64,000 nucleotides of DNA from Antedon mediterranea (taxonomy: Eukaryota > Animalia > Echinodermata): positions 17,217,881 through 17,281,880 of the forward strand of contig NC_092678.1 of assembly GCF_964355755.1 (NCBI RefSeq), written 5' to 3'. The notes beneath the pieces were generated by a model. The model was not told the DNA's origin. It worked only from the letters and a program-made list of their open reading frames with translations, and ran no database searches. Of the stretch, positions 1,822 to 62,864 are shown one piece after another. The translations under genes and the position numbers were made by a program. The first letter of the stretch is position 1. Every line of letters starts with the position of its first letter.

Positions 1822-1869
1822 TCGAACACATTTGCTGGTAATGTTGTTATTTGGTTATAGGACAACGAT
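1822..1869 (-). pseudogene. Truncated LRR pseudo-exon (SLSYNQITTLPANVF); 3' third and splice donor deleted
   Basis: ttttcag|A TCG TTG TCC TAT AAC CAA ATA ACA ACA TTA CCA GCA AAT GTG TTC runs directly into the intron flank. Confidence 0.8.
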
Positions 1870-2025
1870 CTGAAAAGCGTGAAAAATGCAATAAATAAGT
1901 TTAGTTTTGGATGAATATTCTTTCTTTGCAAAGGATAAAAAATGAAATTATGTGACGACAATAAGTGTGGTTTTATTACAACGAAAATATACTATTTTCA
2001 AAAGTATTATAAACAAGTGAAACAT

Positions 2026-2073
2026 TCGAACACATTTGCTGGTAATGTTGTTATTTGGTTATTGGCAAACCAC
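2026..2073 (-). pseudogene. Truncated LRR pseudo-exon (WFANNQITTLPANVF); same deletion as 1822-1869
   Basis: ttttcag|G TGG TTT GCC AAT AAC CAA ATA ACA ACA TTA CCA GCA AAT GTG TTC; part of a ~204-bp local tandem duplication. Confidence 0.8.
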
Positions 2074-3889
2074 CTGAAAATTGTGAAAAATTTAATAAAT
2101 AATATATACAGTACCAAGGGATAGGATGATAAAACATTATATATTTTATATATAATTTAGAAAAACAAACAAAACATAACAATAAATATCTTATTGTGCC
2201 AGCAGAGGTCAAGTCCAATTAGGCGTGTCACTCCAGAAGTGAAACCATTACAAGGTATATACAAGGACATACTAATACTTGTTTAATGTTACTTTAGCTC
2301 GTATTATCATTATTTGCATGTTTTAGCTGTTTTTCATTAACTTCTTCTACATGATATATAATTATGTTTTATCTATATTTTACTGTAATCATGTTGTACT
2401 TTGCATATCATATGATGACATAGATCAATATCTACGATACAATACAACCGTTAAATGACGATGATCCATGTGTTCTGCTATATTTTTACGTTTCGTTATG
2501 GCCGCCGATGGTGCTACAGTAACTGAATTAAATAGTCTTGAGTTCGCATAAACAATGCCAAAATAGAAAAACTCAAAAAGAGCAAAAAGAAAGATATTAC
2601 ATTTGAACGTATTACGCATGAAAGAGACATATTTCATTGAAGTATTAATTCCTAAAATAAAATAATTGTTTTTATGAGGAAAAGAGTTAAACTGACGTTT
2701 TCATGAGAGGAAGATATATAATATTTGTTCCTCGTGCAAAATAAGCTTATTACAACACTATTACACTAAAGTATAAATTTACACTTAACTGTGCTTTAAA
2801 ATAAACATAATTAAAAGCATTAAACAGTATAGGCCTAATAGTTCACCCGAAAAAAATTTCAGATTTGTCCAAATTCCTTTAAAAAAATCTGACAAATATA
2901 AACATGAAGAAATAAAAAACAATGTCGTTAATATAAATCAGACTTAAGAATAATGAAATCAATTTTCGATAATCATAAGGACGAGTTCTCGAATGATTCT
3001 CTCATTTGTGCCCATGGAATTGATATTTCCTAAGTTCACCTAACTACGGAGGAATAACGCATTTATATTATGATTACATTAATCATAATGTTTAATGATG
3101 CTGTGTTATCGAATTGTCTATGTTACTGGAGAAATCGGGATACAGTACCGATAATCAGGTGTGTTAGACCAGAATACGTTACTCTGGCTTAAAATGGAGG
3201 TCTTTGCTTTAACCACGTTCTGAAATGTGTCTGTAAGATTATGTTAGGCAAAAAAAAAACACCTTGTATACCATAGCAGCCTGGTGTAGAGACCTATGTA
3301 TTGCCTTCGCTAAATCCTTTCTTAAACTTGTTCCCACTTATACCTTCTAGAGGAATGTTATCCATAGATATAACCCTAATATACTGCTGATTGGATTCGT
3401 CATATTATAATTGTAACACAATGTGTCATAAGAACTGTTCGTTATACCATGGTAGTATGTGGTGCAATTAATTAAAGAATTATATGATTTGTAAATAGTT
3501 TACACAAAGTGCAACACAGTGTGACGTGTTATCTGCTACAATATCTAATGATGACACATTTTTAATAATTATGTAAATTCTCATTTAATAAAACACTTAT
3601 AATAACAAATTACCGTATTAAACGTACAAATCAAAGTATACAAACAATACAGTACCAACGGAAATTACGATAAAAAAGTATCTATTTTTTAATTTCGAAA
3701 TACAAAGAAAAAATAACAACAAAATCTCTATATTGTGCCAACAGAGGCCAACAAGACTTATGTCCAATTAGGCGTGTCACTCTGACAGTGAAACAATTAC
3801 AAGGTATAATTGATATAATACTAATTTAATGTTACTTTATCTCGTATTATCATTATTTGCATGTTTTAGCTGTTTTTCATTAACTGTCT

Positions 3890-4151
3890 TTGCAACCATC
3901 CTCTTCATAAGGATATTATCGGCTCCGTTATCGTTAGAAGTGGTAGGATGAGGACGGTGAATGCGCAGACGGACCGTTACAAGTACTCGTTCTACCCAGC
4001 TGGGATAAGGCATTATAACAAAACATTTGTTAGATAGTCCTCAATATATTTATATTTATTTTAGGCAAGCCAATGTTTATGAGCACTGTAATTTCCATTA
4101 TTATTTTGGACAATAAATGAATCTGTATCTGTATCTGTATCTGTATCTGTA
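3890..4151 (+). mobile_element. 5'-truncated LINE 3' end with (CTGTAT)n tail
   Basis: Reads HPLHKDIIGSVIVRSGRMRTVNAQTDRYKYSFYPAGIRHYN (LINE ORF2 C-terminus-like), then AATAAA and a (ctgtat)n tail; absent from the paralogous site near 46195. Confidence 0.7.
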
Positions 4152-5531
4152 TAATTACAATGTTTTATCTAGATTAACTGTAATCATGTTGTACTTTCCA
4201 TATCATATGATTTCTCGTATTATCATTATTTGCATGTTTTAGCTGTTTTTCATATGATTTCTAGATGTATTTCAATATCTACTATACAATACAACCGTTA
4301 AATGACGATGATCCATGTATTCTGCTATATTTTTATTTTTCATTATGGCCGCCGATGGTGCTACAGTAACTGAATTAAAGAGACAAAACAATGCCAAAAT
4401 AGAAAAACTCAAAAAGAGCAAAAAGAAAGATATTACATTTGAACGTATTAAGCATGAAACAGACATTATTTCATAGAAGTATTAATTCCTAAAACAAAAT
4501 AATTGTTTTTATGTTTAACTCTATGCCTAATAGAGTTAAACTGACGTTTTTATGAGATGAAGATATATACTATTTGTTCCACGTGCACAATAAGCTTATA
4601 AAACTATTGCAGATTATACGTGAATCGGACCGGTGACGAGTCGGTGACAAACCGAACGGATCATCCAGGAGTTCTGAAACGTCTGGCCAAGTGCGCTCTC
4701 TTTGCGCAGTATTATACGGTGGCGTGTCTATTTTTGTTTTCGTATCTAATTTTGGCTTTAAAAACATGTCAGCCCAAAATAATCGCTACCCCTGGATCCG
4801 CCCCGTCGGAATATTGTCGATATAAAATGATGGAGGTTCAGACGTTCTGTGGTAGGCCTACATTTAAATTGTATTATTTGTATTCCCTCTTTAAACTTCA
4901 TCTTAATTTCAATAAAATAATATCAATTAAGTAATATTGTTTACTTAGAAGTGTGCCAGTTATTCAGCACTGAAGAAAACAAAATCAGAAAAATGTAAAC
5001 ACATGTTACCAGATTTTTTTAAAACATTAATAAAGCTAAGTGTGTTAATTAATGACATGTAAAGAACATTTTAGCATGAGGAAGTGAAAATATGGAGGGA
5101 AAGAAAACATAAAGTGTAGACACATATATCACCTCACAAGCAATCTATTGCTGACCCAGTGTGAAGCCAGAAATCAAGAGTTGTTCCTGCTCCCCAATTA
5201 TTGTGGTCTCTTTATTTATAAAACTTGAAAAGCAGAAAAAAGAGGAGGAGGTGTATGTTTGTTTGTTGGCAGACTATAACGCTGGTTTAGATTTTAAGTT
5301 AAGTTTATCTTACGGACGGATAACGCTAATAATGTACGTACCACCACATTAGGTAACCGATGCGCCCTCATTATGACGTTTTTTATAAGAGAAATTTACA
5401 AACCATGTGTTGCGCGTGCGAATAAAGAACAAGTGCAGCTATTCCACCGTACGGAGGGAAAGATAACCAATGCCTCTCATAATAACATTATTTTTCATTT
5501 TAATAATATTTACTAATAATGTTAATAACAA

Positions 5532-6590
5532 CTAGATTTGAACTCGTAACTATGGACGAGTTTGGTTATCCGCAGCGAAAATGCCACGTGTACGTCATAC
5601 TTTAGAATATTGCGCACAGAAAAACGATTATGCCATTGAAAAAATGTTAGTGTGCTCTCTATTATATGTCACGTCTAAGTATATAGAGTATACACTATAT
5701 ATCTGTATACGTACTACATACAGTGCAGAATAGGTGAAAATACCGGGACCCGCATTTTCATCCAATTTTTACCATGATGATGTCTTCAAAATGAAACACG
5801 TAGATAGCAATTTTGGAAGGAAATTATCCGAGCAACAACATATCAACGTGTTGAATAAATTTGGATACGTAGAATACGGAAGCGCGCTCTTTTAAATGTC
5901 ATGAACTATGACGCCAAATATGAAATGACTACTGTTATAATTGAACTGGCCATATGATGACGTCACAACATTCGATTCGCATAATTTGTACATGAATTCA
6001 TATTGTACAATTCAACAGCTTCCAGAAAACGTTTTAATCATGAGTATCACTTTTTATTCTGAGGAGCTATAATAAATTTAAATTTATTGGAATGATGAAA
6101 AAAAGTAACCAAAGTTATTCACGCTTTTGAACATGATGAAGTCATAACAATTTTACAAATGGTAAATCATGCGAAAGATAATTGATTGACTTAGACAATA
6201 TAAACATATGGGGGAAAATGGAATATGGATAAGTGGAGATGCGCTCTATTAAATGTGATGAGCTATGACAAAAGAGACAAAAATCCTATATTTTATATTC
6301 GAGTGGCCATACGATGACGTCACAATGTCTAGTTAGCCATATTGATACATGATCCGATATCAACAACTCATCTACTTCCAGAATATGTAAAAAAAAAACT
6401 TCACCATGTAGTTTAGAAACTATGACTGTTTAAAAAAAGTCATCATTTTGACGATTTTTTTTACTTTTTCATAAAAAACGGGCGCAAATTGTCCAATTCG
6501 ACGTGCTCGTATGACGTGATTTTAATTCGAAATTATTTGAAAGCTGGGAAAATTACTAGAAAAGGCTGGAAAAACATAAATCACGCGAAA
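5532..6590 (-). mobile_element. Helentron/HINE-like non-autonomous element (3' part)
   Basis: ctag terminus, aactcgt..acgagtt hairpin and ggttatccgc subterminal motif; homologous to the 39-43 kb copies. Confidence 0.65.
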
Positions 6591-6733
6591 AAAATAACAT
6601 TTACTAATAATGATAATAATAATTATAGGAATAGGGCAAAGGGTAAAACATAAAATGATGTGACAATAAGTGTGGTTATATTACAACGAAAATATACTAT
6701 TTTCAAAAGTATGATAAACAAGAGCAAACACTC

Positions 6734-6805
6734 AGTTCTGTCAATGATGTCAAAACATCAAACACATTTGCTGTTAATGTAGTTATTTGGTTATTGTACA
6801 AGTAC
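6734..6805 (-). pseudogene. LRR exon (YLYNNQITTLTANVFDVLTSLTEL) with broken donor (GT lost, reads CT|gagtg)
   Basis: 72 bp after ttttcag, open frame; donor lacks 2 bp relative to the gtgagt of paralogs. Confidence 0.85.
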
Positions 6806-7819
6806 CTGAAAACCGTGAAAAAATTCAATAAAGAAGTACAGTATATATACAGTACCAAAGAATAGTACGATAAAAATGATCTATTTATTAATTTAGAAAT
6901 ACTTTCCATATCATATGATTTCTGGATGTAGATGTGTTCTGCTATATTTTTACGTTTGATATAACATGATAGAGGTTCAGACGTTCTGTGGTATATTTAT
7001 TATTGTTTTATTTGTATGTTCCCGGTAAACTTCATCTTAATTTCAAATATAATATTATCAATAAAGTAATATTGTTTACTTAAGCGTGGTTCCCACTAGA
7101 ACGCAACGCAACGTATCGACGCAAACTGCTGTATTGCGTAATCACAAGTGGGAACCGACGACGCTACAATAGACAGGTTCCATTTCTCAAAAAACGGCCT
7201 AGAAAACGAATCAAGAAGCATTTTTGGGTAGAAGCTGGGATCCACTTGATTTAGGATATTTCGACCTCGCTGATTACGAATATGGCGGATCCCAAGCGAA
7301 ATTCGGCCATCTAAGCCCTTAATTTGCATAATTAAAAATGGCGGCCATTTTTTATAATTACCCTATATCTCGAGAACCACTAGTCACAGGTAATTAATTT
7401 TGGTCTCAAAATGTTTTAAATATATGTTTTTATATTCACTTTAATGACACATTTTCTCAAAAAATGGATGCAAGTCTTATTTATGCCATTTTGACCTTTG
7501 ACCTTGATATATATTTATTATAATGAAATGTTTTTACAAAAAATGGCCGATTCTACAACTATTGACCTTTGAACTATTAGTCAAATATAATAATATAATA
7601 ATAATAAAACTTTGAAAATTGTGGTCTTATGAATTTTGTTTTCTTTTTAAATTGTTTAAAACATGTGTGTTTCTATCTAATGGCATATTTTGTACAAGAA
7701 TGGCCGATAGTATGGTTATTGACCTTTAAACTACAGCATAGGCCTACTGTATACTAAATATAATATAATTGCATAACTATGAAATTATTTATACACAATA
7801 ATAATTAGTAAAATTATAA

Positions 7820-8335
7820 AATTCACTGCCATCAAATATGATGTGTTATGATTTATATAGATTAAAAAAAAATTGAACACGCAAGTTACATTTGTTGAAA
7901 TTTGAAATTACCTGCCATCAATATGATGGAGTATGATTATAGATTTTTTTAAATGTGAACATGTCAGCTACATTTGGAAATTACCTGCCATCAATATGAT
8001 GGATTATGATTATAGATTTAAAAAAGAATTTGAACACGTAAGCTACATTTGAAAATTACCTGCCATCAATATGATGGATTATGATTATAGATTTAAAAAA
8101 GAATTTGAACACGTCAGCTACATTTGGAAATTTGGAAATTTGGAAATTACCTGCCATCAATATGATGGATTATGATTGTATAGTACCTGCCATCAATATG
8201 ATGGATTATGATTATAGATTTAAAAAAGAATTTGAACACGTAAGCTACATTTGAAAATTACCTGCCATCAATATTATGGATTATGATTGTATAGATTTAA
8301 AAGAAAATGTGAACACGTAAGCTACATTTGGAATG
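7820..8335. repeat. Minisatellite of ~35-70-bp units with core aattacctgccatcaatatgatggattatgatt inside the Academ arm (mirrored at ~9830-10330)
   Basis: About 8 imperfect tandem copies with internal near-palindrome ccatcaatatgatgg. Confidence 0.85.
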
Positions 8336-8350
8336 AACATGTTAAGGGCA

Positions 8351-9460
8351 TCAGTTAAGATCATTCATGCAAAGGTTTCCGTCATCTTTAGCGTTTTTAC
8401 AGCGGCATAAAGCTGTACATGGTAGTTTTGACTTCTTGCACCTACATCTATTGGTTATGCATCGTGTCTTGTATCCACAATAAATCATCTCTAACAAAGC
8501 AGTAGGAATAGCTTCATTTTTCAGAAGCACTGGTTGAAGTTTACCATTAGATAGCTCCCAACCAAAATCTGTTGGTGATGGCAAATGCTGGATTGGCGAT
8601 ACAGCTTTTTTCCATACGAGTGCTTGGAAGTGTGCTCTTTTTATATGTTGGTGCACTGCATCGCTTGTTGGAGGTAATGCGTCTGGTTTTGTCTGTTTTT
8701 TTTAAAGCCCGGACTTCATTGGTACTTTTAACTTGACCAACACCGTAAACGTAGCAAATGAATCTTTCCGATTTCATAATAACTTGGTCACTGATAGGTT
8801 TTCTCCCAGGTCTTTAATTAGTTCATAATGTTTTTTTAATACTTCCCATGCCGATGCCTTTGAGTGACCACTTAGATATGAGCAGGGAAGAGTTAAATTA
8901 CTGTATGTATGTATTAATGTAATTTAACTCTTCCCTGGATATGAGGTAGTATCGCATCCACTAATGGTGTGGAATGGAATCAGTGCTTTTGCATAACCCT
9001 CGGGCAAGGCTTGAAAAATGTTTTTTATAGATACTTTCTTTTTTGGATGTCCCTGTCATCATCCATTTGGATACCATGCTTTGGTAGTGAGACACTAGAA
9101 TCACTATTACGTCTGTATCATCCCTAGAAGCAACTACAACTGTGTCGTATCGGACATTGGCAGCATGACAAGTCTCGTGTCCGATTCTTCATGATCTGCG
9201 ACCAGAGACAACGTATTATTCGTGTAGACTTTTGATGATTTAACAACTGATTCTTTCATAAATCCACCAGCTGTGACAATTTCTTTGTCTATAGGAGCTT
9301 GACGAATCAACTCCTCTGATAGAAATCGTGCCAGATCTGCTTTATTATCTTGTAATGCCAAAAAGTTTGGCAGCGGTATTTCACCACTTTCTATAATTCG
9401 ACGAATTGGTCTCTGTGTTTTGGTTCATCTTTGTCTGGTGGTGTCCTTTATCGACAGTTT
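8351..9460 (-). pseudogene. Frameshifted C-terminal part of an Academ-type transposase (XPG/PIN-like nuclease plus Cys-rich zinc finger)
   Basis: Motifs NKADLARFL, DHEESDTR, DTDV, FHTISGCDTTS, LPPT..HIKRAHFQALVW, PTDFGW, CxxxRCITNRCRCKKSKLPCTALCRC across several frames. Confidence 0.8.
8883..8937. mobile_element. 55-bp hAT-like mini-element
   Basis: 19-bp perfect TIR cagggaagagttaaattac and 8-bp TSD gatatgag (8875-8882, 8938-8945). Confidence 0.85.
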
Positions 9461-11242
9461 TAAGTTAGGCATGCCATGTTAAAAAAAACCAAAACCGGGC
9501 ATTACCTCCAACAAGCGATGCAGTGCACCAGCATATTAAAAGAGCACACTTCCAAGCACTCGTACTGAAAACAGCATTTGCCATCACCAACAGATTTTGG
9601 TTGGGAGCTATCTAATGGTAAACTTCAACCAGTGCTTCTGAAAAATGAAGCTATTCCTACTGCTTCGTTAGAGATGATTTATTGTGAATGCAAGACACGA
9701 TGCATAACCATATAGATGTAGGTGCAAGAAGTCAAAACTACCATGTACAGCTTTATGCTGCTGTAACCACGCTAAAGATGACGGAAACCTTTGCATGAAT
9801 GATCAAAACTGATGCCCTTAACATGTTCATTCCAAATGTAGCTTACGTGTTCACATTTTCTTTCAAACCTATACAATCATAATCCATCATATTGATGGCA
9901 GGTAATTTCCAAATTTCCAAATGTAACTGACGTGTTCAAATTCTTTTTTAAATCTATAATCATAATCCATCATATTGATGGCAGGTACTATACAATCATA
10001 ATCCATCATATTGATGGCAGGTAATTTCCAAATTCCTGAATGTAGCTGACGTGTTCAAATTCTTTTTTAAATCTACAATCATAATCCATCATATAGATGG
10101 CAGGTAATTTTCAAATGAAGCTTACGTGTTCAAATTCTTTTTTAAATCTATAATCATAATCCATCATATTGATGGCAGGTAATTTCCAAATGTAGCTGAC
10201 ATGTTCACATTTTTAAAAATCTATAATCATACTCCATCTTATTGATGGCAGGTAATTTCAAATTTCAAATTTCAACAAATGTAACTTGCGTGTTCAATTT
10301 TTTTTTTAAATCTATATAAATCATAACACATCATAATAATTTTACTAATTATTATTGTGTATAAAATTTTCATAGTTATGCAATTATATTATATTCAGTA
10401 TACAGTAGGCCTATGCTGTAGTTTAAAGGTCAATAACATACTATCGGCCATTCTTGTACAAAATGTGCCATTAGACTGGATAGAAACACACATGTTTTAA
10501 ACAATTTAAAAAGAAAAAAAAATTCATAAGACCACAATTTTCAAAGTTATATTATTATTATATTATTATATTTGAATAATAGTTCAAAGGTCAATAGTTG
10601 TAGAATCGGCCATTTTTTGTAAAAACATTTCATTATAATAAATATGAATGTATAGTTTCTGAACAATTTGAGCCCTATTTCGTGTCTCTCCGATTATTGG
10701 TTACTGAGATACGATAAATCAAGGTCAAAGGTCAAAATGTCAGAAATAAGACTTGCATTCATTTTTTGAGAAAATGTGTCATTAAAGTGAATATAAACAC
10801 ATATATTTAAAACATTTTGAGACCAAAATTAATTATCTGTGACTAGTGGTTCTCGAGATATAGGGTAATTATAAAAAATGGCCGCCATTTTTAATTATGC
10901 AAATTAAGGGCTTAGATGGCCGAATTTCGCTTGGGATCCGCCATATTCGTAATCAGCGAGGTCGAAATATCCTAAATCAAGTGGATCCCAGCTTCTACCC
11001 AAAAATGCTTCTTACACCATATTTCAGAGGAAATAGAACTTGTCTACAATGCTGCAAAGCCGCAGGTTTGATTTCACGCAGGTTAGGGAAAACACAATTA
11101 TCGGAAGGGCATTTTCTTACGCGGCGTAGGTTGCGTTACGTTGCGTCGCTAGAAGTTAGAAGAGTGCCAGTCATTCAGCACTGAAGAAAACAAAATAAGA
11201 AAAAATGTAAACACATGTTACCAGGTTTTTTTAAAACATTAA

Positions 11243-12821
11243 AGGGGGATTCTGGGTTTAAAATTGCTTTTAAATATCGTTTATTTATTAAATAAAAAAT
11301 ATTATAACAATATAGACATTTCAGAATGAAGAAGTAATAACGAGAAATTAAAAAAATAAAATTTCATATACATTTTAGGGTAAATTCATGAAAAGTCTGT
11401 TTTTTAGCAGCTTAGGGAAGCTCATTAATATTCATGAGATATTCACAAAATCACGTCACCAGTGGATTCCAAACTCGCGACGTCATGTACGTTGTGTTTG
11501 TCAACTAATTTACATCTCTCTCCCCTGTCAAACGACGACCACCATTGTGATCATTGTGAAATACATTTTTTGTAGATTTTCTAAGCTAGGCCTAAAGTGT
11601 AATAATAACAGTAGTAGCATTTATTTATTTGACATTTAATGAAATACAAAATTTAGTACAGATATGGAGTCATAAATTATACTATTTTTATACCTCTATA
11701 GTACAGATCGTATTATCGGCTTCACGTACAACACTACTCTAGGCCTAGCCTAATAATAATATGGGCGAGAGCCATTCTGACTAGGGATTCCATGCCACGA
11801 TGGCTACGTTAAAACAATGGGGCCCATGGGCCTAGCTAGCCTACTAGGCCTACTAGACGATTGGCCCATAAATAAAAAAACCCATCCTATCAACCAAACT
11901 CCTAAACAATCTAAACCTAAAACATTCTACAAAATCGGCTGTAAATATTGAAGCAAAACAAGGTCCGATCGCCGTCCACACGTATGGTGTCCCGATCGTC
12001 TAAGTAGGCCTAAAATAAATAGGTTTAGTTTACTCTCCAAAAAAGCGGATACTCATGCATCAAGCAAGTAGACCAGGTAGTAGGAAGGAGACCTAGCCGA
12101 TCCGGCCCAGTTAAAATTGAGCTAGCTAGTGTAGTAGACCCTATGCGAATTGATACTACCAGGCCTTTTACTATAGGCTGCACTACACAAATATTCCAAC
12201 TCTCTCATTCGAGCTATATTATCTATACCATTCCGGTAGGTCGAGTCGACCTTCAATCAAATACTGTACATCGTTCATGTTGTGATTATAGACGGGGTAT
12301 ACTCGACCCGACCAGTTTGGTATTGTTGTATCTGCTTATCACGTGACGATGCCAGGCATGGGCAGCGGAGAGCACGTGTATCGTCGTCTCGCTCGATCCT
12401 CAGCAGGAATGTACAGTATACGTTACGCTTCATTGATTTTGATTTTTCCCTAAGTCGGTGCGAAAATCGGCAAACGTAAAGTGCAAACATATCTAATTTT
12501 TCACTGTTTTGATGAATTTTCATAAAAAATTGACTTTATAAATGGGAAGACCGACTAAAATTACATCAGATAAGTATAATTTTACAAAAGTAATTGATAT
12601 GGTTTATGATAACGAGTCGTCGGAAGATGGACCATTTCACGAATTTCCTATTTTGTAACCACAGTGTGATTTTGCCGTAGCTGCACTTGTAATCTGGCCT
12701 GATTTCACAGCCTTCGTTCTGCTTCACTGGGCGCTTATATAAATTGAAACTTTTACCGTTCAAGAGACAAACAAATATATTTTACATTTTTTACTATTCA
12801 TTTTAAACCCGGAACCCCCCT
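11243..12821. mobile_element. Kolobok-like non-autonomous DNA transposon
   Basis: TTAA TSD, 21-bp imperfect TIR agggggattctgggtttaaaa / ttttaaacccggaacccccct; empty site aaaacattaataaagc in the paralog near 5025. Confidence 0.8.
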
Positions 12822-13529
12822 TTAATAAAGCAAAGAGTGTTAATTAATGAGATGTAAAGCACATTTTAGCATGAGGAAGTGAAAATATGGAGGGAGAGAA
12901 AACATAAAGTGTAGACACAGATATCACCTCACAAGCAATCTATTGCTGACCCAGTGTGAAGGCCGAAATCAAGAGTTGTTCCTGCTCCCCAATTTATTTA
13001 TAAAACTTGAAAAGCAGAAAAAAGATGAGGAGGTGTATGTTTGTTTGTTGCCAGATGCCTATAACGCTGTTTCAGATTTTAAGTTAAGTTTATCTTACGG
13101 ACGGATAACGCTAATAATGTACGTACCACAACATTAGGTAACCGATACGCCCCCATTATGATAAGTGCGAATAAAGAAAAAGTGCTATTCCACTGTACGG
13201 AGGGATAGCTACCCGATGCCTCTCATAATAATATTATTTTTCATTCAATAACATTTACTAATAATGATAATAATAATTTACTTTAAAACAAACGAATACA
13301 AGTAGGTCTATCACTACACACAATACAACTACAAACAGAAGCTTGTGTTAAAATAAAGGTTTATGGATCAATCATAATCAAACAAAAACGGTCATATTAT
13401 ATTATTTTAGTTTTGGATGAATATTCTGTCTTTGCAAAGAGTAATGAAATGATGTGACAAAAAGTGTGGTTATCTTACAACGAAAATATATTATTTTCAA
13501 AAGTATGATAAACAATAGAAAGCACTCAA

Positions 13530-13601
13530 AGTACTGTCAATGATGTCAAACCATCAAACACGTTTTCTGATATTGTAGTTATTTGGTTATCATACAACCA
13601 C
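13530..13601 (-). pseudogene. LRR exon (WLYDNQITTISENVFDGLTSLTVL) with donor GT>TT mutation
   Basis: 72 bp after ttttcag, open frame; followed by ttgagt rather than gtgagt. Confidence 0.85.
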
Positions 13602-17010: not shown

Positions 17011-17082
17011 AGTTCTGTCAACGATGTCAAACCATCAAACACGTTTTCTGATATTGTAGTTATTCTGTTTCTGTCCAACCAC
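17011..17082 (-). CDS. Intact single-LRR exon (WLDRNRITTISENVFDGLTSLTEL)
   Basis: atttccag|72 bp|gtgagt, phase 2-2, open frame, LRR consensus. Confidence 0.9.
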
Positions 17083-50101: not shown

Positions 50102-50137
<36 letters not shown>

Positions 50138-50961: not shown

Positions 50962-51033
50962 AGTGTAACCAATGACGTCAAACCAACAAATTCATTTCCA
51001 GATAATGTAGTAATGTCGTTATAGCTTAAATCC
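50962..51033 (-). CDS. Intact single-LRR exon (DLSYNDITTLSGNEFVGLTSLVTL)
   Basis: attttgaag|72 bp|gtaagt, phase 2-2, LRR consensus. Confidence 0.88.
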
Positions 51034-51199
51034 CTTCAAAATAAAAACATGAATACTTGGTAAAATAACAGTTCACGAGTTGAGGTTTCCTTCTTCGGGG
51101 AAAAATTGTTACAGTTTGGTGTGTATTTCAGCGGACAAAATTGTGACCGTAAAATAATTTATCTGCATTGTACTGTTAGTGTGTATTACGTGTCAGTGA

Positions 51200-51540
51200 A
51201 AATTAAAGATGGTCGACAATGGTGCAAACATTAAAATATTAAAATTAAAATACAAAGTTTATCAATTGAGTACGTAGAACTAAAGATCCGAAGCCTAGTT
51301 GGTTGGAACTTGTTCCGCCAGAGATGGTTCCTGATCAAGTTAAAACTATCAAACACGTCACAGGAAGCGTGGACAAATGTGGAAAACGCGTCAAACGTCG
51401 AAGGAAAAAATTCAAACCTCCATCCATCTGTTATTTTTGGTAATGCGCACTCACTCAAAACAAGTGAAATGGCTGCAAATGTATTCGAATACAGGGACAG
51501 TTGCCTTATGGCGATCACTGAAACTTGGCTAATTTAATCT
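51200..51540 (+). mobile_element. Degenerate 5' fragment of a LINE endonuclease ORF (Rex1/Babar-like); copy at ~63030-63370
   Basis: Basic stretch KRVKRRRKKFKP followed by PSVIFGNAHSLK..EMAA..YRDSCLMAITETWL (APE motifs I-II). Confidence 0.6.
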
Positions 51541-52694
51541 TTTCGGATCATGGATCAAAAACTTGTTCTTGTTATCTGGAAATATTAACATTAAACAGTA
51601 CCAACGGAAATTACGATAATAAAGTATCTATTTTATTAATTTCGAAATACAAAGAAAAAATAACAACAAAATATCTATATTGTGCCAACAGAGGCCAAAA
51701 AGACTTATGTCCAATTAGGCGTGTCACTCTGACAGTGAAACAATTACAAGGTATAATTGATATAATACTAATTTAATGTTACTTTATCTCGTATTATCAT
51801 TATTTGCATGTTTTAGCTGTTTTTCATTAACTGTATTTGCATCATTATAACAATGTTTTATCTAGATTGACTGTAATCATGTTGTACTTTCCATATCATA
51901 TGATTTCTAGATGTAGATCAATATCTACGATACAATACAACCGTTAAATGACGATGATCCATGTATTCTGCTATATTTTTATTTTTCATTATGGCCGCCG
52001 ATGGTGCTACAGTAACTGAATTAAAGAGTCTTGTTCGCAAACAATACCAAAATAGAAAAACTCAAAAAGAGTATAAGAAAGATTACGTTTGGACGTATCA
52101 CACATGAAACAGACAAGTATTCCGTAGAAGTATTAATTCCTAAAATAAAATAATTGTTTTTATGAGGCATAGAGTTAAACTGACGTTTTCATGAGAAGAA
52201 AATATATAATATTTGTTCTACGTGCACAATAAGCTTATTACAACACTATTGCAGATTATACGTACGGTGAATCGATGACGAGTCGGAGACGAACCGAACG
52301 GATCATCCAGGATTTCTGAAAAATCTGGCCAAGTGCGCCCACTTTGCGCAGCATTGTACGAAGGCGTGTGTATATTTGTTTTCGTATCTAATTTTGGCTT
52401 TCAAAAATTGTAGCGCAAAGCAATCGCTACTCCTGGATCCGCCCGCCGGAATATTTTGACATAAAATGATAGAGGTTCAGACGTTCTGTGGTACATTTAA
52501 ATTGTATTATTTGTATGTTCCCTTTAAACTTCATCTTAATTTCAAATATAATAATATCAATAAAGTAATACTGTTTACTTAGAAGTGTGTCAGTTATCCA
52601 GCACTGAAGAAAACAAACTCAGAAAAAATTTAAACACATGTGACCACGTTATTTGAACATTTTAAAGCTAAGTGAGTTAATTAATGAGATGTAA

Positions 52695-55600
52695 ATAATA
52701 ATAATAATAAATGAAAACTTAAAAAGCGCCGGTATCCTCCACCCATGTGGCGCTCATGGCACTTTGTGCATTAACAACGTGCGAGAACATCAGCGAATAG
52801 CGACGTCTTTAGGTTGGTCTTGAAACTGTTTAGACTAGTTGAGCATTTAACTGTTGCTGGTAAGCTGTTCCATACACTTGCGGCCGCAACGTAAAAAGAT
52901 CTCTGACCCCACTGAATTTTCGCTCTACGCTCTTGAAGAAGGTTTTGTGACAATGATCGTAGGCATCTGCGGGATGATTCGTAACGATCCACAAGGTCAG
53001 ATAAATAAGCAGGAGCACTGTCATTTAGGATCTTGAATACAAACAACGCAAGTTTGTACTTAATACGTTGTTGAACAGGCAACCAATGCAAATCCATCAG
53101 GACAGGAGTTATGTGAGCGTTTGATTTTGTATAAGTTACAATTCTAGCTGCCATATTTTGCAAGCGCTGCAAACGTTGTATTTGAGATTTTGGTATGCCA
53201 AACAACAAGGCATTACCAATGTCAATTTTAGAAGTGACAAATGAGTGTACAATCAATTCAGCTGTTTTCTTGTTAAGATTACCGCGAATACGACCAAGGT
53301 TCCTAATCGATATGCATGCTGCTTTGGATACAGTTGTTATTTGTGCTTCCATAGTGAGATTACTATCCAGCATGATTCCCAGATTCCAGACCACCGATGA
53401 GGGAGCGATGTTAGAGTGTCCGATTCTGATATGTGTGATGTTGATTTTGGAGATGTTACATTTAGACCCGACGATAATAAACTCTGTCTTTCCATCATTC
53501 AACTTTAGGTAATTTGATGTCATCCAATTGCGAACATCTTCTATAAACAGGCTTCCATCTTACTGATTGCTGCAGCAACATCCCTTTGCACTGGATTTAC
53601 TGACACATAAATCTGTGTATCATCTGCATAGAAATGGAAATGTAGACTGTGTTTGCGAATAATGTCACCAAGGGGAAGCGTATAAATGGAAAACTGGCCA
53701 GGCCCAATTACTGACCCCTGTGGTACACCATATTCCAGGCAAGCTTCATCTGAGAATGCATCATTGATACAGACTAGCTGACGTCTTCCTGTAAGATATG
53801 ACTGGAACCAGTTAAGAGCAACACCATTTATGCCAATGCGATTTCTCAGACGGGTTATCAGTCTTTGGTGATCAACTGTATCAAACGCTGCTGACAAATC
53901 CAACAACACCAATAGCGTTATTTTCCCATCATTCATTCCTTGTAACAAATCATTCTGTACCTTTAAAAGGGAACTCTCCGTGCTATGACATGCACGGTAT
54001 GCCGACTGGTAATTCTCATTTAAATTATGCTTTTGAAGATATGGAGTAATGCGTGATGTCACTACACGCTCCAGAGTCTTTCCAAGAAAAGAAAGATTCG
54101 ACACCGGGCGGTAATTTCTCAGCGTGTTATGATCCAAGTTTTGCTTTTTTATTAAAGGACGAACGTGAGCAATTTTCAGTTCATCTGGCACTATGCCGGT
54201 ATTAAGAGAATGGTTAATGATTTCCGTTATTATTGGAACGACTGCGTCTATACACTTCTTCAGTATAGAAGTAGGAACTGGATCTAACCTGCATGATTTT
54301 GTTGGTGATTTCATCAGAATGTTGCGGATCTCATCTTGAGATGCTGGTGTAAATGTTGTGAGATGCTGATGAACAGCTGTCACAGGCTCATTAAATGACA
54401 TGTCATCAATCTTGAAGTCGTCTCTGATGATCTTGATCTTGTCTGTGAAAAACTGACAGAACCTGTTCGCAAGATCTAAGTCAGAAAGACTATCTGAGAG
54501 AGGTGATACCTGGCGATGATGAAGGAGTTGGTTAACAATTTTAAAAAGTCCTTTCTGATCTGCTGCATGTTCTTCACACAAGCCAATGTAGTAGTTGGCC
54601 TTTGCCTTTCTTACCATGGAATTTACATTCCTCTTCTGTGCAATGTAAGCTTGACGATCTATTTCCAGATGAGAGATTCTCCATTTCTTTTCAAGCTTAC
54701 GCTTTGTTCTTTTCTCAGCATAGATGTTACTGTTATACCAACTAGTGTTTGGTCGGATCTTTACTGTTCTCTTTTTCGGTGGTGCGTGTTTGTCAAGAAG
54801 TTCACTCAAAGTGGTGACATATAGTCGTACTTTACTTGATAAATCAAGATTTGAGAGCGAAGTTCCGAGATCAGACTGTGTGATATCTTTACATAATGTC
54901 TCAAAATTTATAGCATTCCAATGACGAGTTTCGATGGATTTAGTGATTACGGGTGGCTTCTTGATAAGGAGATTACATGTGATTGCATAGTGATCTGATA
55001 TACCATCAATGACATTAAGGTTTGAGAAAACAGGAGGATCAGATGAACGAGTGATCAGCAAGTCTAATGTATGACCATGTCGGTGTGTAGGTGTAGACAC
55101 ATGCTGTTGAAGACTGCTTGCTACAAGTAGATTCCGAAAATGAATTGCATCTGCATCATTTGGCATATCCACATGGATGTTAAAGTCTCCAACGAATAGT
55201 ATGGGAGCCGGCTTCAATACATAGTGATCGACCAAAGTTGAGAATTCTTCAGTGAAAACATTTAGACTGCAACCCGTTGATTTGCTTTGAGAACGATATA
55301 CTGCTACGAGGAAAACTGAGGATGCATTGCTGACTATTTCCACATTTAGCAGTTCAAATGATTTTGGTAATAATCCCGTGTCATAACATTTAACCGCTAT
55401 GCTTTCCTTGTAAAGAAGTGCAACTCCACCACCTCTTTTAGTACCAGCACGGGGAGCATGTTTGAGAGAGTATCCGTTGGGTGTAATATTTCCTATAACT
55501 GATGTGTCTTCTGGTTTAAGCCACGTTTCCGAAAGGGCAACAACATCCAGATTATGTTCGATAACGAAATCCACAAATTCTGTTGTTTTGTTCCGAACGG

Positions 55601-56510
55601 ATCTTCTATTAATACTGCAAAATTTAATATTGTTTTTAGATAAGAGAGAGTTTGATGATAAGTCCGGAAATGATAGATTGTTTTTAGTGTGTTTGTCACG
55701 CCCAGCTCTTGTACCACGCCTGGTTTTTCTTTTTGGCCTCCTTGGTAATAGGTGACTACTACAGCTACTGGAGTTCAACTTAAAAGATTGTATAATTAAG
55801 CAAGATTCTTCAGGAAGTTCACAACTGTTATTGTTGTTGGTTACACAGCCCTGTAAACCATGAAGAAACTCAGAGCTATAGCTAATTAGCATGACAACAG
55901 CAGATCTTCAAGCATGAGGTGTACAAGGTCATTTACATAACAATATGCACAGTCAGATTGAAAGTACAGGGCTAGCTTCCCACTGATGCTAGTAGACCAT
56001 TGTTCTTGAGCAGTGATGAGTTTGAATTAAAACAATAAAGGCACAAGCAGGGCCTAGCTGAACTTCAGGAAACAACAAGAAAAACAACTGCGATTTACTC
56101 CAAGATACGATTATTTCCACATAAGAAATTTGTGAATATATGGTGCTCAATTTGCTATTCCAGCATCCAGTAAAACTTATTTGATGAAAAAAACCATCTG
56201 CAAACAGATACGAAGTTGTTATGCACAGAGCAATATAGAGCCGCCACATGGGCGCTGCAACCTCCTCTAGTAAAGCACATTGAAGGCCAGTAACGTCGCT
56301 AATAGTTCCACTGGAAATACGCCTTTTCACGATATGGAAGACATCTTCTTCGATGGATGACAAAATAATAATATGAGCAAAGCGTAGCCAATGGTTCTGT
56401 CCACAACAGATTGTGGACAAGCCCATAATAACGACCATATTAATGTCAAAGGCAAAGTTACTAAAACATTCATAACTGATTAACGGCGGACAGTCAAAAT
56501 GAAATTCCAA
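52695..56510 (-). mobile_element. CR1/L2-group LINE, near full-length ORF2 (APE endonuclease + reverse transcriptase) with one frameshift near 53541
   Basis: 783-aa and 250-aa ORFs in different frames: VVALSETWL, GGGVA, VGDFNIH, GHTLDL, SDHYAI, NYRPVSNL, LLDLSAAFDTVDH, GVPQGSVIGP, YADDTQIY, LKLNDGKTE; 3' gagcgc..gcgct stem and (TTA)n tail; 5' boundary approximate. Confidence 0.93.
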
Positions 56511-57807
56511 AAATGTTAGTCACCTTAAGCATACTATTTTGTCCCCTCCGAAGAAATGTATATTCAGTGGTTAGTTTGATTATTCTACATGTTGACTTAC
56601 ATAATAAAACCATCGAAACATGTTAATCTAAACTTTCACAAATGTGTGCTTATAATCATCTCGTTCGGTTTTATCAAAGAAATACTGTCAACATTCTAAC
56701 AAATCTCGCCCTTTCTCCAAGTATTATTCAATGTTAATTTAATTTAACAAAAAAAATTGATTAAACATGTAGATTATTTATTATTTAAAAAGGCAACCAG
56801 TGAACGTTACTGGTGAGAGAACCACTAAAACCGTGGCGTGTCTCGACATCCAGTCCATGGTGTTTAAAGTTAGAATACACTGCTCCAGGAAGACGCTACC
56901 TTAATCCACGTTAGGGCAAATGAGCACTGTCTGTAAGACTCTGTTATGCAGAAATGTATATCAAATGAAAACGAAAAGGAAAGTCTGGAGTTGTGACTAA
57001 CCATCTATTTCAGCCAAACAAAAAATGGAACATACTCTATCGACAAAATAGGGACCAAATCAGAACCCATCAAGATCATATGTATAACTCGACTGCTGAT
57101 AAATGACGAACGTAAGCTATTTACACGCTACCACTGTAAGGAGCTCGAAAGCAGAGATGAATAGATGAATGGATGATAAAATTAATAACTTGCACTACTA
57201 TATCCTAATTGATAATGAAATAAACATGAACTATATTAATGACATTACAATTGTTAACTGAACTGAAGTACATGATGAACAACCACTATTTAGTTTTATA
57301 ATGAACTTCTGTAATATGAACAAATTGAAACTACTTAATTTGTATTTTTACATTACTTTATTGTCAAAAACCAACGTAATAAAATATTAGAATATAGGCC
57401 TACAGCACCGGATATTTATGATAACGTGATCTAATGATTATTTGAATAGACACCACACCTAGGAAATTGAATACAACAATTCTGTAGTCAAAATTAAACT
57501 GGTTTCTTGTGATAGCGTCAACAAGCATTATTGACATGAGTAGTGTACTCCATATTATTGGTATGATGTACTGTAAGTCCCTCCGGATATATTTAAAGTT
57601 ACTGGACTTATTATTAATAGTTTTTCGTTAGTAAATTGACACTTTATACTGCCTTAGTAGGTTCCGATGAACCTTAGAATCAGGAAAAACTTCAAATATC
57701 ATATCTTATATTATGTCTAATTTCATAATTAACATGATTGCCTTGCAATGTAAATCAGCATTCTTTACATTTTTTGGATGCATACAATTATAAGAAGAAA
57801 TACTTAC

Positions 57808-57879
57808 AGTATTTGCAAAGATGTTAAACCACCAAATACATTTGCAGGCAATGATTGTAAGTGGTTTTCGTTTAAATAT
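57808..57879 (-). CDS. Intact single-LRR exon (YLNENHLQSLPANVFGGLTSLQIL)
   Basis: ttgttgaag|72 bp|gtaagt, phase 2-2, LRR consensus; frame not in the ORF track. Confidence 0.88.
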
Positions 57880-58745
57880 CTTCAACAACAAAAAGAAACA
57901 AAAGTTAGTAATTAAACATTCACGAGCTGTTTTGAAGGATGTCGTCTTTGTTTTTGGACACAAAAGTAAATTAAAATATGTTGGCCGTATAGAATAGGTG
58001 TCTGTGGAAATTACTATATGGCCGATAACGTTACGAACGTTTGGTTATTACACAAATGAAAATGTAAATAAAGTGCATGATCGAATAGTTTTAGGGTTCT
58101 AAGATGGAGAAATAGACATCAAACTCGTCTGCTGTCATTCGTCTGAAAGTCAATATAAACGGTCAGGCCGTTATTATAAATGAGAAAAAACGTAGTAAAA
58201 GTGTAGTATTATACTTAAACTTAATTTAAACTTTTCATAAAATGTCGATTGATGTTACGTATGAAGTGATATCCGGGAACATTGCGTCAAGTTTATCGAA
58301 CAATTTGGGTACGAACTTTCAAAAACCGCTTTATCATGCCATTAAGTAATTGTTCATATAAAGAATCGATTTTCCTATATCAATGTAAACGATTCCATGT
58401 GGTTCATGTTCTAAAAAAACTGCTATTGTTAGCCCTGAAAAAAAAGAACCTATTATACTTTTACGGACCATTTTCGCTGAACACGTCGAAGATGTTGGTA
58501 CTTAGCATTAGTTAGTTTTAAGTTGGACAAAAGCAGTTTATTAACTTTAAAAGGAGCATCCCAACCATTGCCTGGTCGGCGATCTTTTGACTAAACGTCC
58601 TAAATATATTTTTGAACAAACAAAGTTAAATCAAATCATCTGAACTCATATTATTAGTTAGTAAATTGAATTTTAGAAACATCTACACATATCATATATC
58701 TGTAAATCTGCAGCATATTTGAAGTATAAAATTATAAGAAAACAC

Positions 58746-58803
58746 AGTATTTGCAAAGATTTTTAACCACATTTGCAGGCAATGATTTTCGTCGTATAAA
58801 TAC
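58746..58803 (-). pseudogene. Decayed paralog of the 57808 LRR exon (58 bp, internal deletions)
   Basis: Retains YLYDEN, tcattgcctgcaaatgt and tctttgcaaatact; flanks homologous to 57700-58070. Confidence 0.75.
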
Positions 58804-60099
58804 CTTGTAAATGTTGTAAATAAACACAGGAGCTGTTTTGAAGGATGTCTTTGTTTTGGAAAAAATAGTTTCACTTGCGTATATGTCAATGATTAACATA
58901 GAGTGGTTGTAAAATAATAAGTGTCAGTGGAAAATAATAGATGCTGATGTTAACATGCTAATAAAAAAAAGAAGAGTAACATTACAAATGTAAGAGTTTA
59001 GCTTTATAATGTATTTGTAATAGGTAGTCTCTGTAGCAAGGGCAAATTCTCACCCGACTAAACATAGCTGAAATAATAGTTGATGTAGACCTAATCTGAC
59101 CTACATGAATTTTAGAATTGAGAATAACCAAACGAATTAAGAACAATTTTTACAGAAAATTGATGGTATAATGATGATTTATTTGCAGTTTAAGAAGTGA
59201 CAGTATTTTCCCTTCTCTTATCTTATCTTATCTAGGTCTACTGCAGAATGTGAACGGAAACATCCGTATACGTTTGACAAAAAGTATAAAAAATTACCTA
59301 TAAAAAGATTGACCAGTTTATAATAATCTCATAGCGCCGTTACACACTCACATAATTATTATTTGTTTGTACAATAATGTAAGCAAATAGACTGGAAGAT
59401 ACTAAAGCATTTTTTAAAAACTATAACACAATACTACTGTTGTAAGGTCTATAACCCACAAGGGCTTTGATGTTACTGTAATGATCAATAACTGTACCAT
59501 TAACATTGGTCAAATCAAGTAAACATGTTCCTACCAAGAATAACCTGTAATACAAAAATGTAAACATAATAATACAATTTTAATATAAATTTTATTGACA
59601 AAAAGAGAGATAGACGTTTCATTACTATCATAGAAACATTTTCAAGATCAAGTGAATCCAAATCAATAATAATTATTTGCACTAAGCACCAAAGTTGGTG
59701 ACATGAAATGCTACTGAGGGATTGAAATTAAATATTAAACGTCTTTTAATTCATAATAATACAACTTAAAACTATCATTTTAATTATTTTGCAAAAAAAC
59801 AAAAAAACACACATATTTTATGTTTTATCCGCTTTGATTAAGAATAAATTGAATAATGTGTTATTGTTCAGAGTCATACCACAAGGCTTCAATTAAAAAA
59901 ATATACTTTAACGTACTAATGTTATAGGATCTAGTATGTCAACAAATTACACCAGGTATGTATGCAATATTTTACTCCAGAAGATGTTAAAATACTCAAG
60001 AATAAACTAGCTAAGTAACTGATGGGGGTGACAGTGTCGTATTAAAACGTCGTCAAAAAGTCGAGAATAATATGACCGGTATCTTATCATTTCTTATTA

Positions 60100-62627
60100 A
60101 CAATAATGTTGAATTAAAGAATTCTGACATTTCCTGCTGTGAACTTATCTAAAATTGCAACTGTTGATATTGGGGCTGTAGATACTGCCTCGTTATATCG
60201 TGAGATAAACAAGATACCATTTGATTTGCAGCTTGTAAAAGGAGATGTTGAGCATGGTTTTACTGAAAGACAACACATCAAGATTAAGCTGAATGAGTGT
60301 TATTGAACAGTCAAAACTTCATTGAACTGCAATAATGCTAGCAACGCCAAGTATTTTCCTAATGCTGTTTAAGTGATGCTTCTCGTCAAGGTACGTATAA
60401 GCAAAAGCCACAAAAAAGCAGACACATGCCTTCCTTGGAATTATGTCCGTTGATACCACCGTGGATGGAAATCAATGCAAAAGTGAGTGCTTTGACTGTT
60501 AAAAGTGATGAATATGCTCCTTTATTGTTGAGCTGTGATGCTAAATATAAAGAGAATATATACTTGGTCCGTCACTCTGGCCTGCTAATGCCATCATTCG
60601 TAAATATTATGAGCCTAGAATTGGTTTGAAAGATAATCAATATGACTCCAGCTTTAACCATACTGGTTAGTCATGGCTGTTCATCAAACTTGTGATGTCC
60701 GAGTAGTTTCATATAACTGTAAGAAATTAAAGTCTAAACAGAAGAAGATTATTGACTTATGCGAGACGTATGATGTTATTTGTTTGCAAGAAACATGGCT
60801 ATGTTATGATGAGCTTCACCTCTTGGAAACGCTGTATATTGATTTTGACTGTTATGGCACGTCGTCTATTGATACCTCCGCATCTCTGGAAGTGTAGCTA
60901 CATTGTTTAGAAAGAGTTTATATAGTTCTGGTAGGCTGTGAGAATCGGGGTTCACGTCTGACACGTTTACCTTCTATAGCACATAACACAACCAGTCGGT
61001 TGGACCATTTAGTTTCCACTCAGAGTTCTCATTCTAGTTTAAGTAATTGTAATTGTAGTTTTGCGTCAGGTAGTTGAGTGATTAGATGTTTTGCCCTACT
61101 AAGTAAAATTGAGAATATTTGCGAAAACATTCGCAAGTAGTTCTCGGGTGAGACTCGAACCCACGACCTCCAGATCACTAGCCTGGCGTTCATACCTCTA
61201 GACCACCGAGCTTGCGCTGATGGCCAGTGGTTAGATTCGAGCTCAAGTAAGCAGCGGGTACTGCACCAACAGGATTGTAATTGTAGTTTTAGCTATTGTA
61301 ATTTTAGCTATATGATTTCATAGGGTCTGATCATTTCTCTATTGCATTTTGTATTAATGATGTTTTATGGGATAAGCCTATAACCCATGATTCAAGATAA
61401 CGACAGACATAACATTGCAACTATTGTTAACTGCAAGTCCGTTAGTAAACAGGATATTGATAAGTACACTTATACCACATGTATTACTTAATAGTCTTTT
61501 AATTAAGTCCTAAGCTTTCAATTGCCATAGTTTCTTTCTGGACGCACCAAAAGCGTTCGATCGAGTCAAATCTTATTTAAAGTTTTAGTTGAAAGAGGTG
61601 TGCCTATCTTTGTAGTTAGGAGCTTACGACACTGGTTTGATAATCAAGAATTTGTTGTTAAATGGGGACATTGTGTCCCTTCACTTTTTTTCTGTTATTA
61701 ACGGTGTGCGCCAAGGGGGTGTAATGTCTCCACTGCTTTACAATGTAGCCTATTATATTGACGATCTTTATGTACAACTTAGAGAGTCCAATCATGGGTG
61801 TACTATTGGTGATAACAAAGTTAATTGTCTCAGTTACGCTGATGACATGCTTCTCATGGCTTCTTTTTCTATTGGAGTACTGAATCTCATTAATGTTTTT
61901 GAACTTTATGCTACGAATCGAGATATTGTGTACGGTACTATACAATCCAAGTGTATGTTTTTATGTGCTCGTGTACGTAAGTTACAAGGTTGACCTAGTG
62001 TTAAGCTAAAACACACTGACCTTGAATTTGTTGACTGTATAACATACTTGGGTCATGTGATTTGTAACTCTCTGAATGATGATAATGATAATATTAAGAA
62101 ACAGTATCGAGCTCTGTGTATCAAAGCTAATGCATTATTCAGGACATTCTACAAATGTTCCGTTGAAGTTAAATGTCAGTTATTTAAAATGTTTTGCGTT
62201 AATGTAGGCCAATACTGTATGACTCTATGGAGTAAATTCCGTGAAGGTACTGTAAACTAATTTAGAGTTTTCTTTAATAACGGGTTGCGTAAGCTACTGA
62301 AAATTCTTAGTTATATCATGATGTTTTTTAACGAATAACGTTCCCTCATTCTATAATTTGATGGAACGCTATACATTATAGTTTTAAGAGCATAATTCAT
62401 GACAGTTGCAATAGCCTGATTCAAACCATAGTTAACGTCCTAGCACAATCCAACCTACTGTACAGTACATCAGCGTTGGTACAAATTGGTATTTTTTAGG
62501 ATATTGTAAGTTGATTTGTGGAAGTTGCTTATTTAATTTCCTGGTTAAATTGTTTCTATTTTTGTTTTTTGTATGAATTGTAATGGATGTACTATCCGAA
62601 ATAAAGAAAATGAATGAATGAATGAAT
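60100..62627 (+). mobile_element. Degraded L2/CR1-group LINE
   Basis: APE (VVSYNC..DVICLQETWL), RT (FLDAPKAFDRV, NGVRQGGVMSP, YADDM), C-terminal LGHVI..FYKCSVEVKCQLF, AATAAA and (GAAT)n tail; start approximate. Confidence 0.85.
61063..61273 (-). mobile_element. tRNA-derived SINE-like insertion within the LINE
   Basis: Minus strand has A-box-like agctcggtggtctaga and B-box ggttcgagtctc; flanked by a 17-bp direct repeat attgtaattgtagtttt. Confidence 0.65.
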
Positions 62628-62792
62628 AGTGTACCGTCATTTTAAAAGTGATATTATTGGCTTAATACAACGTCATGGTATTTAGAAACAGTTAAACCAA
62701 CCCTTAAATGCATAATTTCACAATTAACCAGATTTACTTACAATTGTAAAGCTTGTTGTTACAAGTAAGGAAAAATGAGAATAAACACTTAC

Positions 62793-62864
62793 AGTGTAAC
62801 CAATGACGTCAAACCAACAAATTCATTTCCAGATAATGTAGTAATGTCGTTATAGCTTAAATCC
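62793..62864 (-). CDS. Intact single-LRR exon (DLSYNDITTLSGNEFVGLTSLVTL), same as 50962-51033
   Basis: attttgaag|72 bp|gtaagt. Confidence 0.88.

Follow-up and report, generated by a model that had tools for sequence, protein, structure and literature searches.

We analysed a stretch of 64,000 nucleotides from the feather star Antedon mediterranea (contig NC_092678.1, positions 17,217,881 to 17,281,880), hereafter the window, which carries an array of exons that each encode a single leucine-rich repeat (LRR).

Results

LRR exon cassettes in the window

The window was AT-rich (GC content 0.30-0.39) and contained many repeats. From 10 window copies of the exon we derived a DNA profile and a protein score matrix, with which the entire 64 kb was scanned. 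On the minus strand the scan detected 13 clear LRR cassettes along with one eroded copy; the plus strand had none. The gap in profile score was clean, with 34.4 for the lowest cassette and 18.0 for the next best match. A generic LRR pattern gave 21 matches in the window, compared with a mean of 2.0 (maximum 5) in 40 shuffles. The total of 14 was made up of 13 cassettes on a 72-bp phase 2-2 plan, six intact and seven dead, and one intact exon of 75 bp. The original prediction for this DNA had listed 13 minus-strand cassettes on the 72-bp plan, six intact and seven damaged, and our re-analysis by profile, splice sites and frames arrived at the same tally; the intact 75-bp exon at 47873-47799 had been missed. 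All six intact 72-bp exons had an AG acceptor, a GT(A/G)AGT donor and an open phase 2-2 frame, and with the 75-bp exon included all seven intact exons were in frame, free of stops and bordered by AG and GT(A/G)AGT. The cassettes are listed below and referred to by their upper coordinate.

62793-62864, minus strand: intact 72-bp LRR exon, motif DLSYND; same sequence as 50962-51033 (Pfam LRR_8 E 2.5e-5, under the curated cut-off)
58746-58803, minus strand: dead, eroded copy of the 57879 exon with two 7-nt deletions, donor context lost (profile scan)
57808-57879, minus strand: intact 72-bp LRR exon, motif YLNENH (splice sites, frame, Pfam)
50962-51033, minus strand: intact 72-bp LRR exon, motif DLSYND (splice sites, frame)
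47799-47873, minus strand: intact 75-bp (25-amino-acid) LRR exon, motif YLYDNA, with the best splice scores of all cassettes
33511-33582, minus strand: intact hybrid exon whose 5' part matches 18061 and whose 3' part and intron match 17082 (site of the 979-bp indel in the 16.5-kb pair)
30023-30094, minus strand: dead cassette, donor reads TT, motif WLYDNQ; same exon sequence as 13601
23209-23280, minus strand: dead cassette, 2-nt loss at the donor, motif YLYNNQ; same exon sequence as 6805
17990-18061, minus strand: intact 72-bp LRR exon, motif GLGSNK (splice sites, frame)
17011-17082, minus strand: intact 72-bp LRR exon, motif WLDRNR (splice sites, frame, Pfam)
13530-13601, minus strand: dead cassette (donor TT), identical to 30094 (sequence comparison)
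6734-6805, minus strand: dead cassette (2-nt donor loss), identical to 23280 (sequence comparison)
2002-2073, minus strand: dead cassette, 29-nt deletion of the 3' part and donor, stop, motif WFANNQ
1798-1869, minus strand: dead cassette, same 29-nt deletion and stop as 2073, motif SLSYNQ (204-bp tandem copy with 2073)

The window repeat followed the 24-amino-acid LRRV consensus of the variable lymphocyte receptors (VLRs) and belongs to the typical LRR class. Five of the six exon peptides scanned matched Pfam LRR_8 at E ≤0.002, which lies below the curated cut-off, as single repeats. Among solved structures related to the repeat profile, VLRs and VLR-based designs filled most of the top 60 of 106 PDB matches, followed by LRRC15, LRRC4 and LGR4/5. 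The dominance of VLRs among the top matches bears out the earlier assignment of the repeat to the class of the VLR LRRV modules.

Duplicated units and a hybrid exon

Comparison of the window with itself revealed nested duplicated units that have upstream and downstream intron blocks in common. The older units were nested and 3-30% divergent. Two duplications were nearly identical, and several flanks occurred without an exon:

3060-35803, unstranded: a ~16.5-kb unit present twice in tandem (3060-19530 and 19531-35803), the copies ~0.2% apart, with a 979-bp indel
50120-64000, unstranded: duplication at an 11.8-kb offset (50120-52169 equal to 61951-64000, running past the window edge), last ~1,960 bp identical
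Within 3647-63579, minus strand: six upstream-intron flanks without a 17082-class exon, ending near 63423, 51592, 45943, 35649, 20121 and 3647 (flank comparison)

Past its first kb, where 49 of 996 sites differed, the 16.5-kb pair showed 31 differences in 14,491 aligned sites; the 11.8-kb-offset pair had 7 differences in 2,050 sites, every one within the first 87 bp. Because these duplications are near-identical, the exons 13601 and 30094, 6805 and 23280, and 51033 and 62864 form identical pairs. After removal of identical exons 10 distinct cassettes and one hybrid were left. The 13 cassettes counted originally are thus real loci but not independent copies, the number having been inflated by the two young duplications.

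The 979-bp indel was clean: one 16.5-kb copy contains the exons 18061 and 17082, and at this place the other contains the single exon 33582. At informative sites 33582 read as 18061 through exon position 60 and as 17082 from position 68, and in addition two acceptor sites matched 17082. We infer that exon 33582 arose by unequal crossing-over inside two exons. By sequence it appears to have formed recently, and it remains intact. The six units represented by a flank only seem to have lost their exon. The intron 5' of the 75-bp exon resembled, at 72-87%, the one found after 17082-class exons, with that exon missing at this site, and a 17082-class neighbour was probably lost in the window copy. 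Birth and death of single-LRR exon units, as proposed originally, is in agreement with the nested duplicated units, the dead copies, the exon-less units and the hybrid.

Variation at the repeat's concave face

In the standard LRR fold the x residues of the segment xLxxNx face the concave side. These positions correspond to codons 0, 2, 3 and 5 of the window repeat, here called the concave codons, and the differences among seven close copies were concentrated in them. A 24-amino-acid LRR consensus and a concave binding site are given in an excerpt of PMC4731796. At the concave codons the pairwise nonsynonymous difference was 0.28-0.76 in 20 of 21 pairs of the seven copies, and 0 in the pair of parent and hybrid. 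For the same 21 pairs the other codons gave 0-0.16 and the downstream intron 0-0.19. Fisher P was <0.05 in 16 of the 21 pairs, which are not independent of each other.

A tree-free count of minimum changes was then made on six non-redundant close copies, leaving out 33582 as a hybrid and 13601 and 6805 as duplicates. All eight first and second positions of the concave codons varied, with a minimum of 11 changes where the rate of the flanking introns would give 3.3 (Poisson P ~6e-4); the concave codons thus changed ~3 times faster than the flanking introns. In the same count the core Leu/Asn/Ile/Phe codons showed one change in 10 sites and the convex codons three changes in 12 sites. Codon 22, also concave, encoded three residues among the four full-length copies. 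The evidence for selection consists of change counts. A regional mutation hot spot as the source of the concave variation was rejected, because the interleaved Leu and Asn codons were nearly invariant. We concluded that the predicted ligand-facing residues are likely to be under diversifying selection.

Splice junctions, variants and depth in sequencing reads

Four runs from one sample contained 77-83% of the sequence words of 56900-62900. Run X5 came from another sample with the same species label, and its status as RNA is our guess. No RNA run was listed for 56900-62900, a blank that says nothing about expression. On 16931-17230, X5 yielded 12 contigs, two of which contained junctions falling exactly at exon ends. 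In the first of these the joint stepped 47 nt back with 25 letters between, an exact 72-nt period, and the contig reads as two 17082-class exons joined end to start, the second with the new motif NLGSNQ. The other contig left a 17082-class donor and continued for 30 letters, 29 of which equal the start of the 75-bp exon when compared by eye. The 72-nt joint had a depth of 0 in runs X1-X3. No exon junction was present among the 15 of 222 joints listed for X5, X1 and X2 on 44100-64000. The X5 contigs point to splicing among relatives of the window exons, at low depth and in one run.

Further concave variants were found in X5 and in the DNA-type runs X2 and X3, such as DLGNNQ (X2) and YLYSNQ (X3), decoded by hand from equal-depth rows among those listed. 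X1 and X2 also contained variants of the DLSYND exon at 50998-51016, again decoded by hand, one of which alters the concave residue after Asn. The summed depth on the conserved exon half was ~8-15 times that of single long contigs; this weakly hints at ~10 close copies of the exon, depth not being a reliable copy number.

Other domains and protein relatives

Motif scans of the window for LDLa, LRRNT, LRRCT, EGF, seven-transmembrane (7TM) and TIR sequences gave nothing credible. ROC-COR was not seen among window open reading frames (ORFs) of at least 90 amino acids, with Pfam run on 12 non-LRR ORFs of 37. An exon scan of the minus strand by splice sites (45-450 nt) returned 11 candidates, and the nine scoring at least 7 were LRR exons and a duplicated 51-nt candidate of no recognisable kind. 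On the same strand, at ~44.95 and ~56.86 kb, lie two copies of a short stretch with an ATG in a good Kozak context; they have one synonymous difference in ~130 nt, inside an 83% identical block. This signal-peptide-like stretch was rejected as an exon, as it came without a good donor.

The protein search gave 47 generic LRR matches among 1,028 candidates of 78-2000 amino acids, none of them crinoid by name, which is a weak blank. For the 75-bp exon none of seven protein candidates matched, likewise a weak blank. The best 150 of 4,399 representative matches were unnamed many-repeat proteins. Two slit-like isoforms of Mytilus californianus (P0033 and P0042), a small LRR-EGF protein, differ by exactly one 24-amino-acid repeat, hinting at a similar duplication or skipping of a single-repeat exon in the mussel.

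Mobile elements and other repeats

A near full-length retroelement, which we take to be of the L2/CR1 type, occupies 52.7-56.5 kb on the minus strand (Pfam RVT_1 and Exo_endo_phos), with a frame shift near 53.5 kb and high depth in X5, X1 and X2. Its endonuclease-reverse transcriptase ORF at 53.5-55.9 kb matched an Antedon mediterranea protein with 93% identity across 69% of the query, the second named match (63%) being from a brittle star. Taken by itself, this one mobile element would make Antedon or a closely related feather star the likely host. A reverse-transcriptase remnant lies at 61616-61993 on the plus strand (Pfam RVT_1, E 5e-8). The fold-back element at 7213-11013, with a copy near 23.7-27.5 kb, has a 300-bp inverted repeat (98%) and an inner one of 1.2 kb (91%). 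It contains tandem repeats of 75 bp as well as ORF remnants with a Cys-rich end; there was no Pfam match, and it is presumably a CXC-type transposon. At 39.3-43.4 kb an interspersed repeat of high depth occurs in three tandem ~1.5-kb copies, oriented opposite to those inside cassette units, with relatives at 0.8-1.7, 5.5-6.6, 22.0-23.1 and 48.7-49.5 kb.

Discussion

We consider it fairly probable that the array results from germline birth and death of one-repeat LRR exons, combined with diversifying selection, in a fast-evolving recognition protein. The window likely covers the middle of a feather-star gene, or of tandem genes, in which the LRR domain is encoded one repeat per symmetric exon. 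The product is likely a recognition receptor that evolves quickly and most plausibly serves immunity. It likely owes its structure to exon duplications that were inherited, and not to somatic assembly of the lamprey kind. Exons would multiply and die through inherited tandem duplication and unequal crossing-over. Since every exon is in phase 2-2, the gain, loss or hybridisation of an exon keeps the frame, so that unequal crossing-over would change the length of the solenoid and the order of its binding strands between haplotypes. Point mutation and selection would rewrite four or five exposed residues per repeat, copies without a donor would be skipped and then decay inside the intron, and diversity would lie mainly between alleles and paralogues. 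The immune role is what we infer from the selection pattern and from analogy. The diversification of the concave face and the head-to-tail splice junctions between relatives of the exons go beyond the original prediction, which had described a library of modules; such an array exists but is small, with 10 distinct cassettes and a hybrid, and read depth hints at ~10 close copies, not hundreds.

Several observations weigh against this reading. The concave codons were picked after the alignment had been viewed, though they match the standard LRR consensus; four of the six copies in the change count are dead, and recombination undermines the independence of that count. The labels 'receptor' and 'immune' rest on the selection pattern. 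The 64-kb window yielded no exon for LRRNT, LRRCT, a transmembrane segment, TIR, 7TM, Ig or a GTPase. A comparison of seven exon peptides with 315 proteins turned up no close relative, again a weak blank, the best match for any of them having 17 identical residues of 23. Depth is low (2.3 and 5.2) in the two spliced contigs, which come from X5 alone, a run that also has intron-spanning contigs. They match relatives of the window copies (4-5 differences in 38-39 nt) and not these copies themselves, and the junction from a 17082-class exon to the 75-bp exon reverses the window order, where the 75-bp exon is placed 5' of every one of the nine 17082-class copies. Exon 17082 itself was absent, at its concave codons, from the contigs of X1-X3.

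It is possible, if on the doubtful side, that the assembly has set two haplotypes, or a false duplication, in tandem at the 16.5-kb and 11.8-kb repeats, as their divergence of 0.2% and near 0% would suggest. The sole X1 contig with the GLGSNK exon had a depth of 68.8, within the 61-76 of non-repeated single contigs, though the window has two copies; depth does not equal copy number. An artefact of this kind would reduce the count to 10-11 cassettes instead of 14 and leave the nature of the array unchanged. The older units, nested and 3-30% apart, show that the duplication process is real, and the binned X1 depth over 50.1-52.2 and 62-64 kb was ~1.3-3 times that over 56.7-59.4 kb. Were the 16.5-kb copies alleles, the 979-bp indel would be a polymorphism in cassette number, which still fits germline birth and death. 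We regard it as unlikely that the array is a decaying paralogue or scrambled fragment that no longer makes protein, with diversified exons copied from a live gene elsewhere. Half of the cassettes (7 of 14) are dead, six further units have no exon, transposons are dense, the spliced order in X5 is opposite to the window order, and a 17082-class exon is missing 5' of the 75-bp exon despite the 72-87% intron likeness. Yet all seven intact exons keep frame, AG and GT(A/G)AGT and are without a stop, and the hybrid is recent but intact. Improbable, in our judgement, is the ectodomain of an LGR/GRL101-type G-protein-coupled receptor or another LRR-membrane protein, serving chemosensing, gamete or self recognition and not immunity. 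A fixed-hormone receptor is not expected to vary at its concave face, which counts against such a protein, and no exon for 7TM, LDLa or Ig was seen in the window. The weak matches include an Amphiura LRR-7TM protein (P0046, E 3e-4), with hemichordate LRR-Ig proteins (P0013, P0024) scoring above it, and phase-2 single-LRR exons occur in gonadotropin receptors (excerpt of PMC11378527).

Combinatorial splicing, with many isoforms per animal or cell made by skipping or choosing symmetric exons as in ROCO genes or Dscam, has a rather small chance of being the explanation. The phase 2-2 plan throughout would make any skip frame-preserving, alternative splicing is reported for ROCO LRR exons that follow this plan (excerpt of PMC11378527), and the Mytilus slit-like isoforms are one 24-amino-acid repeat apart. 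Against this, neither of the two junctions seen gives one exon two partners, a single shallow contig links two exons of one class in series, unlike the mutual exclusion in Dscam, and there are just seven intact exons in 61 kb. Somatic assembly in the manner of VLRs, where silent cassettes would be copied into an incomplete gene in immune cells, we hold to be highly improbable. It shares with the window the 24-amino-acid LRRV repeat class and a hypervariable concave face; distinct concave motifs are retained in dead cassettes, and the two-site patch at the acceptor of 33582 and 17082 resembles a short conversion tract. However, VLR cassettes number in the hundreds, lie in either orientation, and are copied into a target gene whose only intron is in the 5' untranslated region (excerpt of PMC3308329), whereas the ~10 window cassettes carry splice sites, point one way and are joined at exon ends. 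Nothing in the re-analysis indicated somatic assembly, and here the original prediction, which saw no somatic mechanism in the sequence, stands.

Germline birth and death of LRR exons has its closest parallel in the LRR-exon array of the brown-algal ROCO genes; by analogy the window locus would work alike, but it is not a member of that family. Excerpts of Zambounis et al. (PMC3341825) and Teng et al. (PMC11378527) describe one LRR per 72-bp phase-2 exon, dead LRR exons within introns, intragenic recombination and alternative splicing. They also report four positively selected concave sites, homologous to window codons 22, 0, 2 and 3 by our reading of the paper's numbering, and a proposed immune role with the somatic step unproven. 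In contrast, the ROCO repeats are of the GxxPxxL type (type I) on a cytoplasmic GTPase and those of the window of the typical extracellular class; intact ROCO exons occur also on the opposite strand and the window copies all point one way; and the window, from an echinoderm host, showed no ROC-COR. VLRA, VLRB and VLRC (excerpt of PMC3308329) share the 24-amino-acid LRRV-type repeat, the variable concave face and the coexistence of live and silent modules, but their hundreds of cassettes, placed either way, are copied somatically into an incomplete gene without a coding intron, whereas the window has ~10 spliced exons. The assembly of VLRs takes place in lymphocytes and is driven by a deaminase, and their incomplete germline gene has LRRNT, LRRCT and a stalk. 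The amphioxus VLR-like protein Bf66946 is likewise a typical-LRR protein of an invertebrate deuterostome whose concave face binds bacteria, with 2-9 repeats among the candidates; its caps and anchor are known, and the excerpt of PMC4731796 describes no exon array or selection.

A Dscam-type cluster differs in its mutual exclusion, since an X5 contig, single and shallow, contains two same-class exons one after the other. Repeat number is stable in LGR, Slit and NLR proteins. One-repeat LRR exons are by themselves ordinary (excerpt of PMC6642158): frame-preserving exons of this kind are present in LGR/gonadotropin receptors, where they are in phase 2, in Slit and in NLR proteins, and exon skipping is known from NLRP3 and Slit, while the excerpts of PMC6642158 and PMC11378527 describe no dead cassettes or recent diversified duplicates for them.

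A bolder proposal is a crinoid recognition receptor of VLR-type repeats with a within-animal repertoire, produced by combinatorial splicing of its symmetric, hypervariable exons and by conversion from silent intronic cassettes; it would be an exon-based counterpart of the VLRs in a non-chordate deuterostome, and we see only a slight likelihood for it. In the excerpt of PMC13428168 echinoderm recognition diversity consists of the large germline families TLR, NLR, SRCR and SpTransformer, and crinoids are unmentioned. No earlier echinoderm case of such an LRR-exon array was found in the parts of the open-access literature consulted. An array of VLR-class repeats diversifying one by one within a gene would give the brown-algal ROCO arrays a parallel among the invertebrate deuterostomes. 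It may offer a small locus for asking whether the shuffling of LRR modules began as inherited exon turnover before there was a somatic mechanism.

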